A stretch of 64,000 nucleotides of DNA. Source: a virus. Lineage: Duplodnaviria; Caudoviricetes. The translations under genes and the position numbers were made by a program. Every line of letters starts with the position of its first letter. Positions within the stretch are counted from its first letter, which is position 1. The DNA lies in IMG/VR virus record IMGVR_UViG_3300033120_000574, positions 32,001-96,000 of that record; one strand, given 5' to 3'. Below are positions 37,321 through 48,949 of this stretch, piece after piece. The notes beneath the pieces were generated by a model that saw only the letters and a list, made by a program, of their open reading frames with translations, searched no databases and had not been told where the DNA came from.

Positions 37321-37767
37321 CTATAAGGCAAGCAAGGCACCAAAAACAACAGTTGTAACTAACAGAACACCAGCAACAACCCAAGGCACTAAATCCCATT
37401 CATTGCTAGATCTGAGTTGTACGTTTTCTTGCAAAGCAACATCAAGGGCTTGTGAAAGTCTCACTCGCTCAGCATCTAAAGTCGTGTGAATATCAGTACA
37501 CGCTGTCAATGCAACCTGTAAGTGTGTTTGAGCTTCTTCAAGAAGAGATATCTGCGTTGCTTGTGCAGCAGCTGTTGTCTCAGTCAAACGCAAGTCATTG
37601 TCCATGTTGAGCAATTCTTGAAACTCAGGCAAAGTGTAACCTTGGTATGTTACGCTGTTCACGGTGAGTCTTGAACCAACAGGCAAACGATACCGAGTAT
37701 ACGTTTGTGCAAATACAACACTGGGTACCAGCCAACACAAAAGTATAAAGCTACTCCACTTTAGCAT
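37321..37767 (-). CDS. Exported coiled-coil protein with C-terminal membrane anchor (o-spanin position)
   Basis: Signal peptide ending VFA|Q, coiled coil, hydrophobic C-terminus WVVAGVLLVTTVVFGALLAL; overlaps the 3' end of the i-spanin-like gene. Confidence 0.55.
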   Translation of the reverse strand: MLKWSSFILLCWLVPSVVFAQTYTRYRLPVGSRLTVNSVTYQGYTLPEFQELLNMDNDLRLTETTAAAQATQISLLEEAQTHLQVALTACTDIHTTLDAERVRLSQALDVALQENVQLRSSNEWDLVPWVVAGVLLVTTVVFGALLAL

Positions 37768-38140
37768 CTACATCACTCCATGTATTTAGACTTTGGATTA
37801 GGTCTCGGTTTTCAGCATGTGTGTACCTTAGCTGAGAGAGCTTTCCATTTATCTCTTCCACACGAATCACAGCTTGCTCAGCAGCTAGTGCAGCCTTTTG
37901 TTGTTTGTCAGTTAGGTTAGATACTTCTCCAAGTACAGCAGCAGATCGAATCTCTGCTTGTAGCAAATCTTTCTCATGCTGGAGACGCACAATCTCGTCT
38001 GACCGCAACTTCATTCTTAGCGAGAAGACAAATAAGAGTACAACAACTAGTAACGTTACAACGCTACCAATAAGCCATTTACGCCAACCGGTTGGATTGC
38101 TCTTCTTGTAGTTTTCTATATAATCAAGTATTTTTTGCAT
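37751..38140 (-). CDS. Inner-membrane spanin-like protein
   Basis: Start MQKIL (38140); single N-terminal TM helix followed by a coiled coil. Confidence 0.6.
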   Translation of the reverse strand: MQKILDYIENYKKSNPTGWRKWLIGSVVTLLVVVLLFVFSLRMKLRSDEIVRLQHEKDLLQAEIRSAAVLGEVSNLTDKQQKAALAAEQAVIRVEEINGKLSQLRYTHAENRDLIQSLNTWSDVDAKVE

Positions 38141-38142
38141 AA

Positions 38143-38552
38143 TCAGATACTCCCGAATTTCAATGTGAGTAGGACTCCATTGCAGCAATCTGCGGCCCCG
38201 TAGCGACGCCTGACATGAATGACGACCTCGCCAATCGTGACGGTGGTCGCGCCACCAGCGGCCAAAGCAGCATCTACAGCGTCCATCTCCGCATCGGTCC
38301 ACTCCGTGTCAGCGAAAACAAGTTCTCCGATCGCACCGATACAGCGATAGAAACTAGGCGGTGAGACGATACCCACGATCACGCCGAGGCGGGACGGCAG
38401 GCAGTCCGGGAGGCGTGCGGGAGGGAACCAGTGAGGAGCGATGTTCATGCCGGGTTGTCGGGGCGGGCGCGCGAGGGTTGCTACCAGCGCGCAGATATTG
38501 CCGCGTCTACCGCATCCATAGTCGCGTCGCTCCACACAGTTTGGATAGTCAT
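38143..38552 (-). pseudogene. Three decayed alternative C-termini of the upstream fibre-tip domain
   Basis: Fragments QTVWSDATMDAVDAAISARW*, IGAIGELVFADTEWTDAEMDAVDAALAA(R)W and IGEVVI/MSGVATGPQIAAMESY/LTLKFGSI* align by eye with the active end VGAVKEVILIDAVIGGADLAALSASMIARWP*. Confidence 0.6.
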
Positions 38553-40204
38553 GGCCACCGCGCGATCATGGATGCGGATAGCGCGGCAAGGTCCGCTCCC
38601 CCTATCACTGCGTCGATCAGGATGACTTCCTTGACCGCGCCGACGAGAGGAAAGACGAGACTGCCAAGGCTGCCGATAGTCAGTGCCGCGTTGGCCGAGC
38701 CGAGGCTGCCAAGGCTCATCGCGATAGGAGCGCCGTTGATGTAGACGGTGCCTCCGGTGGGACCGAAGGCCCATGAGCACACTGCACTCACGGGGTACGC
38801 GCCGACCGCTACAGACGCGTCTGGCCCTGACAAATTGCCGCGTATACGCAGACGGTCGCCGCTGCCCGTGTTTTGTACAAGCGCGCTGGTGTGGCTGTTG
38901 AGCACACTGTATTGAAGGGCCGCTTGCGATGTTCCGCCTGCGCGAAAAGCGACGGCTCCAGACGAACGCGCGCCCATCGCGAAGGCGGGTGTGACCATCT
39001 CCTGCCCTCCAGCGAATACGACCTCTCCACCGCTCACTGTAGGCCGGAGCGCACCTGCCGCAGTGGGGTGCCGTCCGTGCCCGCTCAACTCAGTCCACGA
39101 ACTGAGCAGGCCCGGAGCAAGGGTCTTCGCGTCAAGCCATATCTCTGGAGACAGTGAGAGCACGTAGTCCGCCCACGATAGCCCGTTGCTCGTGTCGACG
39201 TCTGAGCCTGCGCCATTCGTGATCGTGACCTCGCACGTGACCTCTCCGAGCATGTCCGCGCTGACGACCGTGTACGTCGACGCGGTCGCCCCGCCGATCG
39301 CGACGCCATCCCGGTGCCACTGGTACGTCGGCGTCACGGGCTCGGTGCCCGTCCACGTCCCTGGCGTGCAAGTGAGCACGCTGCCGATCGAGTACGTGCC
39401 CGAGATGGCGGGCGACGTAGCGAAAACAGGAGGTAACAAATCAACAGCAATTAGATTGCTTTCTGCGCTGGTAGAGCCCACAAAGTTAACCAAAGTTACA
39501 AAACAAGTTATGTCAGTGCCTCCGTCAGCATCTACAGTAGTATATAAGTCCAGGGTCTCTCCTACAATGTCTACACCATCTCTACGCCACTGGAAGTTAA
39601 AAGCTATGGGCTCAGTGCCTCCCCATGTTCCAGGGTCACAAGTTAAAAGGTCTCCAGGTGTAGTGCCTCCAGTAATCGTTGGACTAATAATAAAGAAAGG
39701 AGCTATGAACTCTATAGGATCTCCACCACCTAGGACAACCAAAGACTCAAATGCGTCATTACGAGACCCACCAATCAGATCATCTTCAATAGAAATGGCA
39801 GTTAGAATGTTGCGGATATTTGATGTGGTACGTTTGTCAAAATGACTTGGAGTAGACTTTAGTATTTGGTCTATTTTAGTTTGTCTAGATCTGTAGGGAA
39901 ACACACGAGGCGGGTATGATATAAACGGCAAACCCTCTGTGTTGGTTAAAGTGACGAAACTCAGTCTGTATATAGTGCTGGGAGAATGCGTTGTTGTCTG
40001 TAGAAAAATAGTGTCCGTAGCTACAATGCTATCATCTGTAGGACGTAAAACGGACACTACCTGTACATTGTTAGCTGTAGAGTAACCGTATGACGCCGTG
40101 ATAACCCAGTTACTTGGGTTTAAGAAGTCACTGTCAATCCTAGCACGTTCGCTAAGTGTGACTTTTATTAGGTCAGTATTCAGGTACGTTACAGCTGTAA
40201 TCAT
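38549..40204 (-). CDS. Fibre or receptor-binding protein with two Ig-like repeats and a LamG/ConA-like tip
   Basis: Two P.I.G....G..LTC.PGTW.GTEP....QW.RDGV.I.G.T repeats, then LSPEIWLDA..SWTELSGHGRH..VYING..EVIL. Confidence 0.75.
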   Translation of the reverse strand: MITAVTYLNTDLIKVTLSERARIDSDFLNPSNWVITASYGYSTANNVQVVSVLRPTDDSIVATDTIFLQTTTHSPSTIYRLSFVTLTNTEGLPFISYPPRVFPYRSRQTKIDQILKSTPSHFDKRTTSNIRNILTAISIEDDLIGGSRNDAFESLVVLGGGDPIEFIAPFFIISPTITGGTTPGDLLTCDPGTWGGTEPIAFNFQWRRDGVDIVGETLDLYTTVDADGGTDITCFVTLVNFVGSTSAESNLIAVDLLPPVFATSPAISGTYSIGSVLTCTPGTWTGTEPVTPTYQWHRDGVAIGGATASTYTVVSADMLGEVTCEVTITNGAGSDVDTSNGLSWADYVLSLSPEIWLDAKTLAPGLLSSWTELSGHGRHPTAAGALRPTVSGGEVVFAGGQEMVTPAFAMGARSSGAVAFRAGGTSQAALQYSVLNSHTSALVQNTGSGDRLRIRGNLSGPDASVAVGAYPVSAVCSWAFGPTGGTVYINGAPIAMSLGSLGSANAALTIGSLGSLVFPLVGAVKEVILIDAVIGGADLAALSASMIARWP

Positions 40205-44198: not shown

Positions 44199-47102
44199 TT
44201 ACCTCTGTGTTATGAAAGAAACTTTTACGCCTGCTGCTCTGATCAGATTAAGTACATAACGTAAGCGTTCCTCAAAAGAAACAGGAAGACGTACAGGAAA
44301 CTCAAATCCAAACTGTTTAGGATAACCAGTATCACCCATCGGAGAAACATTGTCAATCTGTTGATGGTTATGGTTTACTAAAATACTACTAGGAACAGTC
44401 AGGGTGGCGCCTGTTTTATTAGTATAGCTTAAGTTCTCTTGTGGGCCAGGTGTGAATGTAACTGTGGTACCTTCTGCGTAATCCCAACAAAGTGCATGTG
44501 ACAGCGTAAGTTCGTTTGTACCAACATTATTGTTAGTCACAGTATGTACTTGCTCATACAGTGGACCTGCACCAGGTGAGATAGTAATAAAGTAGGGATA
44601 AACTGTTGGAAATTGTGCAGTACTTAACAGGGATATAGTAGTTGTTCCAGCAAAATAAGAAGAACCTGTTATGTTTTTTACTGTCTGGGTCTTGCTTCCG
44701 AAATTAAAACAAGCGGTACCTTCTTCTTCAAAGTCTGTACCAGAGGTCAGTACCAGAGAGGAGTACACAGGTCTGCATATATCAGCAGACAGGTACTGTG
44801 ATTGTTTTGGGTAGAATGCCTTCAGGTCTACACCTTCACTGATTCCTAGGTGATCATCAGTAAGCCCTGGACTAACGCGGATCACGTCTGCAAGCAGTCT
44901 AATTTGCTTTGCAGAGCCGTGGTTTTGCGTGAGAGGGGAACCAAGCAAAAGCCTGTTTGGACCCGTAGCAGTTCCAATAACTTCAACAACCTCGCGAGGT
45001 CCAATACCGCCTGCACCAGTTAGTACAACACGATAAGATGACCCATTTGGGAAAGTGTGCAGCGGACCTACAGGTCCACTCAAGGACGATACTGGCAGTT
45101 CCATATCGCCAATGTTCACACCACTAGACAGTAATGTCCTTGTTCTGTTTTTTAAAGCAATCTGCTGTGCAGCAACGGTCTCAACGTTTCCCGAATTCTC
45201 TCCGACACGCAATTGAAAAGGAAACGTTGTTGGGAAATAACTAGCATCTTCTACTTCCAATACATTACGACCTGCATAAGTATCTATTGCTATTTTTGTT
45301 GGACCCGCAGTGGGTGAAGTAGCGACGACGTTACCCACTGTTTGGTTTAATGGTACGTTTTCAAAAAAATCCCAGCAGTAAGGACCAGGCCAGTTGTTGA
45401 AACCACTCCACATGTTTCCATCTAAATATGTGGAGAAAAAGCTTACAGCGCTACCAGCCAATACAGTAATTTGTAGTGGGTTACCTAACTTCAATACAAC
45501 GGATTCTTTTAGTTTACTGCCTTTAGGTATGTAGAAAGACGTAGCCGGAACAACAAGTGCTGTTGAGGATGCCACCAAATATGTAGTATTTCCTAATGAA
45601 GAACCATTGTAGGTCACATCTACATCTCCAGTGGAAGGAAACAATGAGGTGTCATCCACTTCCAGCAGGGTTGAACCTGCCTCAGCATCAAGGTTGGTCC
45701 AAGTATGAGGAACTGTGTAGTTATACTGTGCAAAACCATTGAGTGTGATCATTCCAAGGTCAGAGAAAGTTGAAGTGTCTGTGATTTGAATTGATGTATC
45801 ACCTACACCAGCAGTCACAGCCATAGTACTCGCAGCGGCAAGATTTACATTAGGATCTCTTATATAACTAGCTGTTCTAAGGTCGTTAACGACTAGCTCT
45901 CTAGGAATGAGCACTTCGATGTGTCTTGGATCACTTTGAAATATGTCCCACCCTTGTGACTTAACTTGAACCTGAGCAACACACACCGTGTTAGTTGCCT
46001 TGAGTTGGGTAACTTTGTTTGGACTGACGAATGACGTTAAATTAGGTGCTGGCTCCTTCAACAGGATAGTTCCGTTCTCTGGAATAACTCTGTTGTACTG
46101 GAAGGGAAACAAAATATCAAAATCATCGCCAACAACAGGAGCAGCGGGAAGAACATTAGAGAGATAAAAGGTATCTGCAGCTACAAAAGAAACAAACCCA
46201 AGCTTATCTTGTAATGCTGGTGTTGCTGTGCCACGAAAACGAAGAACGCAACCTGCAAAGTCTCCACCACCCAAAGCGGAAGTCAGCGGAGTGTAGGATA
46301 CAACAGTTGTAGTGGTGCCTCCAGCTGCGGGAACCTCACTCAGTAATAGAACACTAAGTAACCCGCCCTTAGCCTCCAAAGACGCTACGTCACTAAGTGA
46401 GATCTCTACTGCGTTTTCTTGCGCAGTGTCAGCAACGTTCATTACGTTTGGAGTAGCCTGTGCCCCTGTAAGAGGATTTGCTGTTCCAAACTGTACAGTT
46501 ACAGAGTGTCTGTTTAGTGCACTAGAGTACACATCTACGTGTTCTTGTGGCGTACCTCTACCAATGCATACGGTGTGTTCAACTGTAGGAAATCCAGATG
46601 AATCGAAAACGCTGTATGTGCTATCCATCGCAGCAACATCATTGATTATAGGTGTTTCCCACACTTTGTTCACTGCAGCATGTGGCATGGTGATTGGGGT
46701 AACTAGTGTTGCCTTACCTGTGTCTTTGTCTAGGAAAGAGTAGGAAACTACTTCAGACTGAGAGATGTATTGGTCTAAATGAAACGTTCCAACTTGTGGA
46801 AACCTTTCCGGTTCTAGTATGTATATCTCTGTGTCTCCTGGTGACGCATTTTGTGCCAAGGCGCTACACACCGTGACTCTAGGTCCAAGAAGAATGCTAA
46901 GTACTGCCTCAATTTTGTTTATGGTAAGCTTGTCCTGTATAGATAACGCACGTACGATCGCACGCCACACGTCATCAGAGAACCCATTCACGCTTCTTGG
47001 AAACCCAAGATTCGCAGTTACAACGTCCAGTCTGTCATCATCAGCAAAATCCAGACATAGCTGGTCTCTGACTTCTGCAATAGCGGATTTAATAGTCATC
47101 AA
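44199..47102 (-). CDS. Baseplate wedge protein with repeated beta domains
   Basis: LDVV..NLG.PR...SDDVWR at the N-terminus and IRAAGVKV at the C-terminus (gpI/wedge-like); follows baseplate J. Confidence 0.7.
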   Translation of the reverse strand: MMTIKSAIAEVRDQLCLDFADDDRLDVVTANLGFPRSVNGFSDDVWRAIVRALSIQDKLTINKIEAVLSILLGPRVTVCSALAQNASPGDTEIYILEPERFPQVGTFHLDQYISQSEVVSYSFLDKDTGKATLVTPITMPHAAVNKVWETPIINDVAAMDSTYSVFDSSGFPTVEHTVCIGRGTPQEHVDVYSSALNRHSVTVQFGTANPLTGAQATPNVMNVADTAQENAVEISLSDVASLEAKGGLLSVLLLSEVPAAGGTTTTVVSYTPLTSALGGGDFAGCVLRFRGTATPALQDKLGFVSFVAADTFYLSNVLPAAPVVGDDFDILFPFQYNRVIPENGTILLKEPAPNLTSFVSPNKVTQLKATNTVCVAQVQVKSQGWDIFQSDPRHIEVLIPRELVVNDLRTASYIRDPNVNLAAASTMAVTAGVGDTSIQITDTSTFSDLGMITLNGFAQYNYTVPHTWTNLDAEAGSTLLEVDDTSLFPSTGDVDVTYNGSSLGNTTYLVASSTALVVPATSFYIPKGSKLKESVVLKLGNPLQITVLAGSAVSFFSTYLDGNMWSGFNNWPGPYCWDFFENVPLNQTVGNVVATSPTAGPTKIAIDTYAGRNVLEVEDASYFPTTFPFQLRVGENSGNVETVAAQQIALKNRTRTLLSSGVNIGDMELPVSSLSGPVGPLHTFPNGSSYRVVLTGAGGIGPREVVEVIGTATGPNRLLLGSPLTQNHGSAKQIRLLADVIRVSPGLTDDHLGISEGVDLKAFYPKQSQYLSADICRPVYSSLVLTSGTDFEEEGTACFNFGSKTQTVKNITGSSYFAGTTTISLLSTAQFPTVYPYFITISPGAGPLYEQVHTVTNNNVGTNELTLSHALCWDYAEGTTVTFTPGPQENLSYTNKTGATLTVPSSILVNHNHQQIDNVSPMGDTGYPKQFGFEFPVRLPVSFEERLRYVLNLIRAAGVKVSFITQR

Positions 47103-48949
47103 AGCACCTGTACAAGAGAAGCACCGCTACCATCAAAAGGTAGAGGCAATTCACTCTCTAAAACGGTTATATTTGCTGTTGGTGTAATTATTCGTATGTC
47201 TTCCAAACCTACGACGGAAAAAGCTACGTCTATTAACTTTGATCTAACAACGTCTCTACCTATACGAAGGGAAGAAATATATGACTCAATAGCACGCCTT
47301 ACTTGAGGTGCAAGAAAGGACTCCGAGTAGCCTTCTGCTGCAGTTATTGAAGCAACGACAGTTACACGTTTTATCGTAGGTTCTTCTACAACTAAAAACG
47401 TACCAGCAGCTTTTACACCAGGATAACGAGTAGGATCCAGTGGATCACCTTCCATTACTTTTTGAACCTCGGCAATCAAGTTAGTGTAGTATATGTAGTG
47501 AGAGATTACCTTTGTTCCAGCTAAAAACCCACCAACGTCTATCAACTGAAACTCACCAGTACCTCTATTTAGATTGTACTCAGTACGGCTCAACAGTCGC
47601 CATACACCGGAGGGTGGCTGTATCCAAACACGTTCACTTCCACGGACCAATGGAAAGTTTGTGAACTGTAAACGACGTTGAGTAGCCTCTGTTGAACTAG
47701 ACAAAACGTCCACAAAGTTTACGATAGTTGTAGCTAAATGTGGAAAAGCAAGAGGAGTTGTTGTAGTTGGATAGAATGTGTTAGCATCATATTGTAAAAG
47801 CTCTGGGTCAGTAGAGTCTTCAATGTATAGCCATCCTGACTCTGGCCAGTCGTCAGAGTTAACAAGGGGAACACCAGAAGCTCCAGCCAGGATGTCAGAC
47901 GCTATCGAGTCACTAGGGAGAATCTGTGTTCTTGCGGAGCTTCCAGTCCCATCATCAATGTAGAGAATAACTTCATCATTAGCAAAGTCTTCTACAATGT
48001 TTGACGAGATAACGCGAGTTTGAGATACTGGATCTTCTACTCCAATGGCTTTTGACTTCAGCGCTAAAACAGTACCAAGTCCTAATGCGGCCAACTGTTG
48101 TAAAGCTCTTGTTCTAAGGTCTATGTCGGTCTCTGCATCCAATCCACCTTGTGCCTGTGTAATGTTTGATACTGCCCCACCAACAAAAGGAGGCGAACTA
48201 GCCCATTGGTTGATTCTACCAGTTCCTATGTTTCCTGCCAAGCCGCTAGTAGTACATTTAACTATAACCTCATTGGATTCATAGTTACCTTGAAGAATTG
48301 TAGCTGGTTCAATCGTTGTGTAAATTCTAGCTGTTTCGTTAACTGTAGGTGGTGCTTGTACCTCGGTTCCTATTGGAAGAAATCTAGATGAAGAGGAAGG
48401 TGCAACTGGAGCAAAGAGAGAACCACCAGTTACAAAGGCAAGACGATCTCCAATAAACAAATCTGAAGTGGTAGCGGAGGAGATAGTCATGGTTCCAGTA
48501 GATGTGTCATTGTTAGTGACTTCAAGATTTTGTTGACGTGCTGTGCCTTCTCCAACACGGACAGTGTATGGATACCCCGTTGTTGGAAATCTTGTAGTAT
48601 CAAACCCGTTTACAAACAAACTACCAGCAGTTATATCAATTCCAAGTCTGGTTCGTATTAGGTTGTTGTCATAGAACTTAACCAAAGCTGTAGCAGGTTT
48701 AGCAGATCTACGTGTTATGCCAAAATCTGCTAACCTACGATCGAGGTCCTCGCCAGCAGCGGTCGTATAACTAAACAAGTCTAACAATTGAACCATTTGA
48801 AAGTACTGTTCATCGTCTTCCAATGCAGCAGCTTCAAGTATGGTTCGTATTACAGATCCTACGTTATAATCGGAGACTATGGTACGCGTTTGCATATATG
48901 CGACCATGTCTGTTAGAATCTGGTCAAAAGTTCTAGGTAGAAATGCCAT
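47099..48949 (-). CDS. Baseplate J-like protein
   Basis: DYNVGSVIRTILEA, A.GEDLDRRLADFGITRR.A, GGLDAETDIDLR.R, YISSLRIGRDV. Confidence 0.9.
   Translation of the reverse strand: MAFLPRTFDQILTDMVAYMQTRTIVSDYNVGSVIRTILEAAALEDDEQYFQMVQLLDLFSYTTAAGEDLDRRLADFGITRRSAKPATALVKFYDNNLIRTRLGIDITAGSLFVNGFDTTRFPTTGYPYTVRVGEGTARQQNLEVTNNDTSTGTMTISSATTSDLFIGDRLAFVTGGSLFAPVAPSSSSRFLPIGTEVQAPPTVNETARIYTTIEPATILQGNYESNEVIVKCTTSGLAGNIGTGRINQWASSPPFVGGAVSNITQAQGGLDAETDIDLRTRALQQLAALGLGTVLALKSKAIGVEDPVSQTRVISSNIVEDFANDEVILYIDDGTGSSARTQILPSDSIASDILAGASGVPLVNSDDWPESGWLYIEDSTDPELLQYDANTFYPTTTTPLAFPHLATTIVNFVDVLSSSTEATQRRLQFTNFPLVRGSERVWIQPPSGVWRLLSRTEYNLNRGTGEFQLIDVGGFLAGTKVISHYIYYTNLIAEVQKVMEGDPLDPTRYPGVKAAGTFLVVEEPTIKRVTVVASITAAEGYSESFLAPQVRRAIESYISSLRIGRDVVRSKLIDVAFSVVGLEDIRIITPTANITVLESELPLPFDGSGASLVQVL

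Follow-up and report, generated by a model that had tools for sequence, protein, structure and literature searches.

Why should a phage whose structural genes are otherwise packed end to end carry a gap of several hundred nucleotides directly behind its fiber gene? The question is raised by a window of 64,000 nucleotides (nt), bases 32001-96000 of the 139,128-base IMG/VR virus record IMGVR_UViG_3300033120_000574, which is 82% complete and has a guanine-plus-cytosine (GC) content of 44%. The genes near the fiber gene all lie on the minus strand and form a closely spaced structural operon that also includes a baseplate wedge gene (47099-48949). Spacers between the gene pairs of this operon range from -88 to +1 nt, with the exception of the 408 nt that separate the fiber gene from the next gene (37751-38140). 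These 408 nt hold three decayed C-terminal ends of the fiber tip's own family, on the strand of the fiber gene, and the reading that we favor, with a probability of about 0.72, is that the gap is the debris of serial C-terminal displacement of the receptor-binding tip.

The fiber gene (P0002; 38549-40204, minus strand, defined by its open reading frame (ORF) and translation) encodes 551 residues arranged as an N-terminal anchor (residues 1-165), two Ig-like repeats (residues ~170-343), and a 207-residue tip, and the live gene ends in ...GAVKEVILIDAVIGGADLAALSASMIARWP followed by the stop codon. A HMMER search returned 58 relatives of the tip among 1.84 billion representatives. The window's tip itself has no Pfam match at an E value of 0.1 or better, and 17 of the 41 aligned HMMER relatives match Laminin_G_3 (PF13385; best E value 3e-10). 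The AlphaFold2 model of the tip, computed from this alignment, is a β-sandwich of 15 strands with a C-terminal helix (predicted local distance difference test score (pLDDT) 95.9, predicted template modeling score (pTM) 0.92), ending in a strand at residues 177-186 (AVKEVILIDA) and a helix at residues 192-205. Foldseek matches the model at a probability of 1.00 to ConA-like lectin domains, including the trans-sialidase lectin domain, the lectin-like subdomain of clostridial toxin binding domains, and the tailspike of cyanophage Pan3, at 8-14% identity, so that the likeness extends to the fold alone. The C-termini of the relatives come in three recognizable styles: type A, ending in ...IGE(L/V)xFADxxWSDAxMxAVDAAxAARW (P0010-P0013); type B, comprising the live end in the window and those of P0003, P0005, P0006, P0008, and P0009; and type C, commonly ...G-x-I-x-E-...-Y-L-x-x-K-W-G.

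Ends of types A and C recur behind the stop of the fiber gene, all on the minus strand. Fossil A1 (38481-38552) comprises the last 18-22 codons and the own stop of a type-A tip (...VWSDATMDAVDAAISARW, then the stop). From 38552 to 38481 it reads MTIQTVWSDATMDAVDAAISARW and a stop, as a 23-codon ORF whose ATG overlaps the fiber stop (ATGA), and tblastn aligns 38537-38484 to the end of P0010 with 15 of 18 residues identical (83%, E value 7e-5). Behind A1 lies a 3' flank of donor context (38377-38480, minus strand), made up of 81% GC intergenic DNA and the first 24 codons (MNIAPHWFPPARLPDCLPSRLGVI) of a donor ORF that breaks off at 38377/38376. Fossil A2 (38251-38376) consists of ~40 codons of another type-A tip, covering its last strand and helix; 38376-38257 reads VGIVSPPSFYRCIGAIGELVFADTEWTDAEMDAVDAALAA without the final RW and stop, tblastn places 38391-38257 on the ends of P0010-P0013 with E values of 1e-7 to 1e-6, and 27 of 36 nt are identical to A1. 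Lastly, fossil C (38143-38250) represents the last ~31 codons and the stop of a type-C (…Y-x-x-x-K-F-G) tip broken by two frameshifts: 38238-38143 reads TIGEVVI, an extra base at 38217, MSGVATGPQIAAMESY, a missing base at 38168/38167, and TLKFGSI before a stop (38143-38145) that lies 2 nt ahead of the ATG of the next gene. Decay grows downstream, A1 being intact with its stop, A2 lacking its last codons and maybe one base, and C carrying two frameshifts. All of the readings of the live end and the three remnants quoted in an earlier, sequence-only reading of this DNA are present in the sequence. Its view of the gap as a stack of tip ends holds for the three ends, but 38377-38480 is donor intergenic DNA with the start of an ORF; a base may be missing just before the RW of A2, as it had proposed, but allowing for the loss does not improve the alignment, and the loss is not demonstrable.

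The remnants are confirmed as real ends of the fiber's LamG/ConA-like tip family. We used a 51-column C-terminal family profile made without the window's tip and without P0003. Among 3632 six-frame peptides of the window, the four highest scores belonged to the live end (E value 5e-16), A2 (2e-8), A1 (0.16), and the middle of C (0.49), and the same four peptides led among the 8058 of the whole 139-kb genome. When the breaks were read through, the profile scores were 33.6 bits for A2, 25.4 for C, and 15.3 for A1. Fossil C was missed by tblastn of single family members because of its frameshifts, so that a frameshift-tolerant alignment was needed; this gave 45.2, 31.6, and 26.3 bits for A2, C, and A1, respectively, scores that were reached by 0, 1, and 2 of 20000 real GC-rich control windows, some of which may contain true family members, and by no shuffles. 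The remnants cover profile positions 15-46, 29-48, and 21-49 of 51, corresponding to the C-terminal strand and helix of the family, and a model of the full-length tip matches the gap at positions 179-210 of 212 alone. A lack of profile similarity to the tip domain had been named beforehand as a possible refutation; similarity is present in both the profile and the tblastn searches, and the earlier claim that the remnants fit the terminal strand and helix of a LamG/ConA-type tip agrees with the strand and helix of the AlphaFold2 model.

Metagenome contigs provided intact counterparts. Logan contigs of four runs were aligned to 37800-39800, and the aligned cores were translated together with their 30-letter loose ends; stretches without cover in X1, X2, and X14 were not counted as absence unless bridged by a contig. 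A 1752-nt contig from a wastewater run (X2 record 13) matches 38210-38176 and reads AHVGEVVISAGVATGPQIAAMEAYFLSKFGV in a single frame, which corresponds to fossil C with neither the insertion behind GEVVI nor the deletion behind ESY and thereby confirms both frameshifts. A 565-nt contig (X14 record 6) matches 38536-38503 and reads IGEMIFADALWSDATMDAVDAAIAVRW followed by a stop, and is an intact relative of A1 and A2. A1 itself is identical to a live end in X14 at 30 of 34 nt.

The 408-nt gap is non-coding debris, and its 23- and 101-codon ORFs are not genes. Pfam, PHROG, and the protein-collection search revealed no conserved ORF between the fossils, no promoter-like site was found in the region (2.3 expected by chance), the one terminator-like site (2.0 expected) is at 37732-37720, outside the stack, and the region has no Rfam match. 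An account in which these ORFs are real small genes, for example for a fiber chaperone, could draw on the ATGA overlap that couples the 23-codon ORF to the fiber stop, on the open 101-codon frame at 38143-38448, and on a contig (X14 record 7) in which the same ATG heads a longer frame. However, the product of the 101-codon ORF (P0001) matches itself alone in a near-length search of 5.8 billion proteins and has no Pfam or PHROG family, and the ORF is a chimera that strings together the beginning of the donor ORF, A2, and a portion of C; open frames are cheap in 60-70% GC DNA. We therefore regard the small-gene account as highly improbable; the sequence-only reading had set an intact conserved gene at 38143-38448 against its own proposal, and what lies there is a chance chimera without relatives.

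The base composition of the locus identifies the second Ig-like repeat (Ig2) and the tip as foreign high-GC DNA in a 44% GC phage, and the fossil stretch lies in the same high-GC island. GC content is 56-81% from 38151 to ~39450 and 41-42% in the flanks; the island, at 64% overall, is the sole stretch of at least 0.60 GC in the 139-kb genome, and the fossils within it have a GC content of 56-57%. Outside the window, 134951-135350 of the genome is the sole other stretch with a 300-nt GC of at least 0.55. The native 5' part of the fiber gene, comprising the anchor and the first Ig-like repeat (Ig1; 39421-40204, minus strand, recognized as Ig by PHROG and Pfam Ig_2), has a GC content of 42%, and the imported module of Ig2 and ConA/LamG-like, presumably sugar-binding tip with its type B end (38549-39420, minus strand) has 65%. 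The 5' edge of the island is sharp, at 39421/39420 (...cctcctgttttcg/ctacgtcgcccgcc..., ...cctgttttcg/ctacgtcgcc...), and the joint is in frame and lies exactly where Ig2 begins. Since Ig1 and Ig2 share only 53% DNA identity, long homology with the Ig1 now in place did not produce this joint. The recombination at the Ig repeat that the sequence-only reading had proposed is thus upheld as to the place of the joint, which however lies at the start of Ig2 and not within DNA homology. The 3' edge of the island coincides with the stop of fossil C. The metagenomic origin of the record and the wide spread of Ig repeats could suggest an assembly chimera, in which the contig of a GC-rich organism was joined to the phage through a shared Ig repeat. 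However, the gene order of the phage resumes on both sides of the island, and the reading frame is kept across the 5' joint. In addition, a 98-kb Logan contig, maybe from the same sample, agrees with the IMG/VR record base for base at even depth, so that the probability of such an artifact is exceedingly small.

The imported DNA belongs to a mobile module in which a constant Ig handle carries varied tips. P0003, a 309-residue protein encoded on a freshwater contig of 23,977 nt, matches the window's tip at 94% identity and Ig2 at 82%, and the Ig domain is 80-91% identical in pairwise comparisons among the window, P0003, P0008, and P0010. After a linker, SNGLSW(A/S)DYV, different tips follow, with 31-43% identity between types; P0010, for example, joins this handle to an intact type-A tip that matches A1 at 83% identity over its last 18 residues. 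P0008 and P0010 (~310 residues each) have a nearly identical 17-residue N-terminus, Ig domains at 91% identity, and tips at 31%, and in GC-rich donors the unit of Ig domain and tip may be a free-standing gene with alternative alleles. The module occurs in contigs of X1, X2, and X14. Its 5' limit is at 39418 in both X1 and X2 record 17, and upstream of this point the two contigs differ (RAAAVAPAFV in X1 versus QGAALAPSFT in X2 record 17).

At its 3' end, the module has at least four continuations across the metagenomes. In the window, the stop is followed by A1 (72 nt), the 104-nt flank, and A2. In the P0003 contig, the stop is followed by 9 nt and then by the flank (38481 to 38376, ~85% identity with 6 nt of indels), which continues into ...ELGALDLEVW. 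In X14 record 7 (98.4% identity over 438 nt), the stop is followed by the first 49 nt of A1 and then by VIELGPFDIE, the same continuation as in the P0003 contig, while in X2 record 14 unrelated sequence follows the stop immediately. A1 is thus missing from the P0003 contig and partial in X14 record 7. Because the joint between tip B and A1 recurs in X14 record 7, it predates arrival in this phage, and A1 was made in the donor lineage; because the P0003 contig matches 38481 to 38376 and continues, 38377-38480 is donor flank; and because the donor sequence past 38377/38376 is unrelated to A2 and C, 38377/38376 is a true joint. The sequence past the joints in X1 and X14, tested as diverged A2 or C, showed no similarity above that of shuffles. 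A downstream ORF possibly travels with tip B in the donors, the window keeping its first codons alone. In X14 record 7, the ATG of A1, which overlaps the fiber stop as ATGA, is fused in frame to donor sequence (MTIQTVWSDATMDAVD-VIELGPFDIE..., compare 38504-38552 of the window) at a joint with 2-3 nt of microhomology, and the dead tip end may there have become the start of the next ORF.

These continuations bear directly on the proposal that the phage switched its tip only once, by importing the whole 1.28-kb island with its stack ready-made. Consistent with a single import, all of the fossils are GC-rich (56-57% versus 41-42% in the flanks) and lie in one uninterrupted island, and A1 was demonstrably made outside this phage, given the recurrence of its joint with tip B in X14 record 7. 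Against it, the P0003 contig departs from the window at 38376 and X14 record 7 departs at 38504, both into a shared, different continuation; since both diverge before A2 and C, these two fossils are not part of the donor context. Moreover, the GC-rich DNA ends with the stop codon of fossil C, 2 nt ahead of the native ATG, and the native ribosome-binding site (GGGAG, 38150-38154) lies inside the last codons of fossil C, as expected if C was resident. A single import is accordingly unlikely, though it keeps an appreciable share of the probability.

The gene behind the stack (37751-38140, minus strand, 41% GC, from the ORF list and sequence) is native and encodes 129 residues with an N-terminal membrane helix plus a coiled coil; a 243-nt contig of run X2 matches 37840-38082, within this gene, at 93% identity. 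Together with the gene that follows it (37321-38140 in all; products of 129 and 148 residues, 17-nt overlap), it has no Pfam or PHROG family. On the other side, the fiber anchor is 61% identical to the start of P0007, a 710-residue metagenome protein (JGI contig of 6095 nt) and the sole protein sharing the native anchor. P0007 has one Ig repeat and then, within a single ORF, a tandem pair of LamG-like domains, the first of which has a type-B-like end (...DRW) that leads directly into the second. The C-terminal end of P0063 (590 residues), which ends in ...AISIEDDLIGGSRNDDL, matches the fiber anchor at 38% identity; since it comes from a 2254-nt contig, P0063 is probably a fiber gene truncated at the contig end, with repeated domains before the anchor.

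The architecture of P0007, with its tandem LamG-like domains behind an anchor 61% identical to that of the phage, would suit an origin of the fossils by decay of a tandem array, in which a stop and internal deletions left only the distal ends of several LamG domains in one ancestral gene. This origin would, however, need three separate deletions, each sparing the last 20-40 codons alone, and the full-length profile finds nothing in the gap but positions 179-210 of 212. A1 moreover ends in a stop of its own, the intergenic DNA behind which also follows tip B in the P0003 contig, and a donor fragment unrelated to tips lies between A1 and A2. Decay of an array is thus quite unlikely.

Serial displacement, the reading that we favor, would have proceeded as follows. 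In a donor population, the Ig domain would serve as a conserved handle and the tips (A, B, and C) as exchangeable cassettes. A new cassette would enter through a crossover in or at the Ig handle and be joined at its 3' side at an arbitrary place, usually a few dozen codons ahead of the resident stop, leaving the old last strand and helix unused. We infer the following order of events, with fossil C as the native end: a resident tip with a type-C end, collinear with the next native gene, would first have been replaced by a type-A cassette, leaving C; in a GC-rich donor lineage, tip B would have displaced a type-A tip, leaving A1; and a donor block running from Ig2 through tip B, A1, and intergenic DNA into the first codons of the next ORF of the donor would then have replaced the resident type-A tip, leaving A2. 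The first import would have made the 39421/39420 joint and later swaps would have occurred by homologous crossover in the GC-rich Ig handle; because later swaps could reuse this handle, one 5' joint may accompany several 3' layers. The order fits the gradient of decay from A1 through A2 to C. On the best reading, A1 at least is a layer that the donor already carried. The sequence-only reading had held that tips are imported at the Ig repeat with an untidy 3' joint and that the old ends pile up downstream, and this is sustained by the decoupling of handle and tip and by the at least four 3' contexts. Its account of the pile as a record of displacements is sustained with one refinement: the top layer of tip B, A1, and the 104-nt flank arrived as one block, so that A1 arose in the donor lineage and not in this phage.

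Several observations weigh against serial displacement. The 44% GC backbone has no close relative in our searches, so that the state of the locus before the swaps is not directly seen: queries with the 1216-residue neighbor, the fiber anchor, and the downstream gene found no backbone relatives in viral contigs, a search for P0007 in metagenome contigs yielded nothing, a megablast of the region against phage records gave no match, and contig scans with P0003, P0010, a family alignment, and a type-A DNA pattern returned distant Ig repeats at most. The end of P0007, compared with fossil C as a test of native origin, was not among the best eight matches; for this reason, and with a GC content of 63% in its 5' half (48% in its 3' half, 54-nt samples), it is uncertain whether C is native. 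Outside the probable source run, no run showed A2 or C, leaving their joints without population support. All of the runs were compared as assembled contigs and not as raw reads, the comparison contigs are known as aligned ranges with 30-letter loose ends, and the indels in the window are supported by two assemblies alone, perhaps of one sample.

Could the fossils still be of use to the phage? If they formed a working reservoir, tip switching that is programmed or frequent would draw on them as silent donors or as 3' landing pads. They do lie on the same strand immediately behind the expressed gene, they represent the most conserved part of the family and could offer short 3' homology to A- or C-type cassettes, and A1 matches the X14 live end at 30 of 34 nt. 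Conversely, the pieces are 22-40 codons long, hold the last strand and helix alone, and are broken in two cases; their direct DNA similarity to the live end does not exceed 10 nt; no full-length spare tip exists in the genome; neither a reverse transcriptase (RVT_1) nor a serine recombinase (Resolvase) or tyrosine recombinase (Phage_integrase) was found in the 139-kb record (82% complete), which agrees with the absence of recombinase and reverse transcriptase noted by the sequence-only reading for the window; and the contigs of the source run contain no variant joints. A reservoir is consequently very unlikely, and the alternative role as silent donors that the same reading had offered is unsupported. 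There is a slender chance that the fossil ends, which in each tip type are the 30-60 nt of highest conservation, serve as 3' homology landing pads for incoming A-, B-, or C-type cassettes, which could then be captured by a pair of short homologous crossovers, at the Ig handle and at a fossil end. If this were true, fiber loci with more fossils would switch hosts more easily.

Incidental uses of A1 are possible as well. An inverted repeat pairs 38491-38526 in A1 with 38561-38596 in the helix-coding end of the live gene (36 nt at 75%); its core matches at 23 of 29 nt, a match reached by 0 of 2000 shuffles and not seen with A2 or C. The RNA fold of this hairpin has a free energy of -68.8 kcal/mol (z -4.2). 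Because no U-run stands behind it, it is not a classical terminator, and a stabilizer of the mRNA 3' end, a recombination hotspot, and chance are candidate explanations. The possible side-uses are thus this 36-bp hairpin with the live 3' end and, in one variant, the heading of the downstream ORF by the A1 ATG.

Among phages, the locus is an instance of a known process. Phages exchange distal tail-fiber and tailspike domains mosaically, as in gp37/gp38 of the T-even phages and the fibers of P2, Mu, and lambda. The present locus resembles such exchange in its constant anchor, replaced receptor-binding end, foreign base composition, and dead 3' stump, and goes beyond exchange with a single stump in having three stacked stumps of two end types, a donor-inherited layer, donor flank within the stack, and four 3' contexts. 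Invertible tail-fiber shufflons are reportedly operated by Gin of Mu, Cin of P1, Min of p15B, and Rin of Bifidobacterium prophages. Like these systems, the locus has alternative fiber C-termini beside the expressed gene; theirs, however, are intact, lie inverted between crossover sites, and have a recombinase gene close by, whereas those found here are direct, short, and broken, and no recombinase was found. Diversity-generating retroelements act on phage fiber tips, as in Mtd of the Bordetella phage BPP-1. Here too a variable receptor-binding C-terminus is followed by repeat-like sequence just downstream, but the 139-kb record has no RVT_1, the live end and the remnants share no direct repeat longer than 10 nt, and the tip fold is ConA-like and not the C-type lectin of Mtd.

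The closest likeness in arrangement may be drawn to bacterial toxin loci. In rhs loci, tips gained by lateral transfer take the place of the resident one, which stays behind silent, and arrays of dissociated tips build up downstream of the conserved core (Jackson et al. 2009, PMC2935791); the 'orphan' cdiA-CT modules of contact-dependent growth inhibition (CDI) systems resemble this displacement (Poole et al. 2011, PMC3150448). As in rhs/CDI, core and tips are decoupled here (80-91% for the Ig handle versus 31-43% for the tips), and the displaced ends A1, A2, and C stand in order downstream on the same (minus) strand. Unlike rhs/CDI, the product is a phage receptor-binding fiber and not a toxin, an immunity gene is lacking, the joints on the 3' side are untidy and not made via a circular intermediate, and no core fragment is kept, the gap having no Ig and no N-terminal tip positions; with no core fragment and a length of 22-40 codons, the fiber remnants cannot re-attach by core homology. 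The fiber locus is not a member of the rhs/CDI system. Within the partial literature that was covered, we found no published description of a multi-layer stack behind a phage fiber gene; the paper on phage epsilon34, checked as a possible precedent, does not report a tailspike remnant. The process of tip swapping is already known, and what the locus adds is an unusually clear three-layer record of it.

The host range of phages is set by their fiber tips, and the steps by which tips are traded are usually erased. Here the order of three successive ends is preserved, and metagenomes reveal the donor population, making the locus a datable record of receptor switches across a GC gap, from 64% GC DNA into a 44% GC phage. 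The portable unit is defined as an Ig domain plus a ConA-like tip, together ~290 codons. The locus also offers an explanation of why many swaps can share a single 5' joint as debris gathers on the 3' side. For annotation, the locus is a warning that ORFs such as those of 23 and 101 codons behind fiber genes of this kind are debris.

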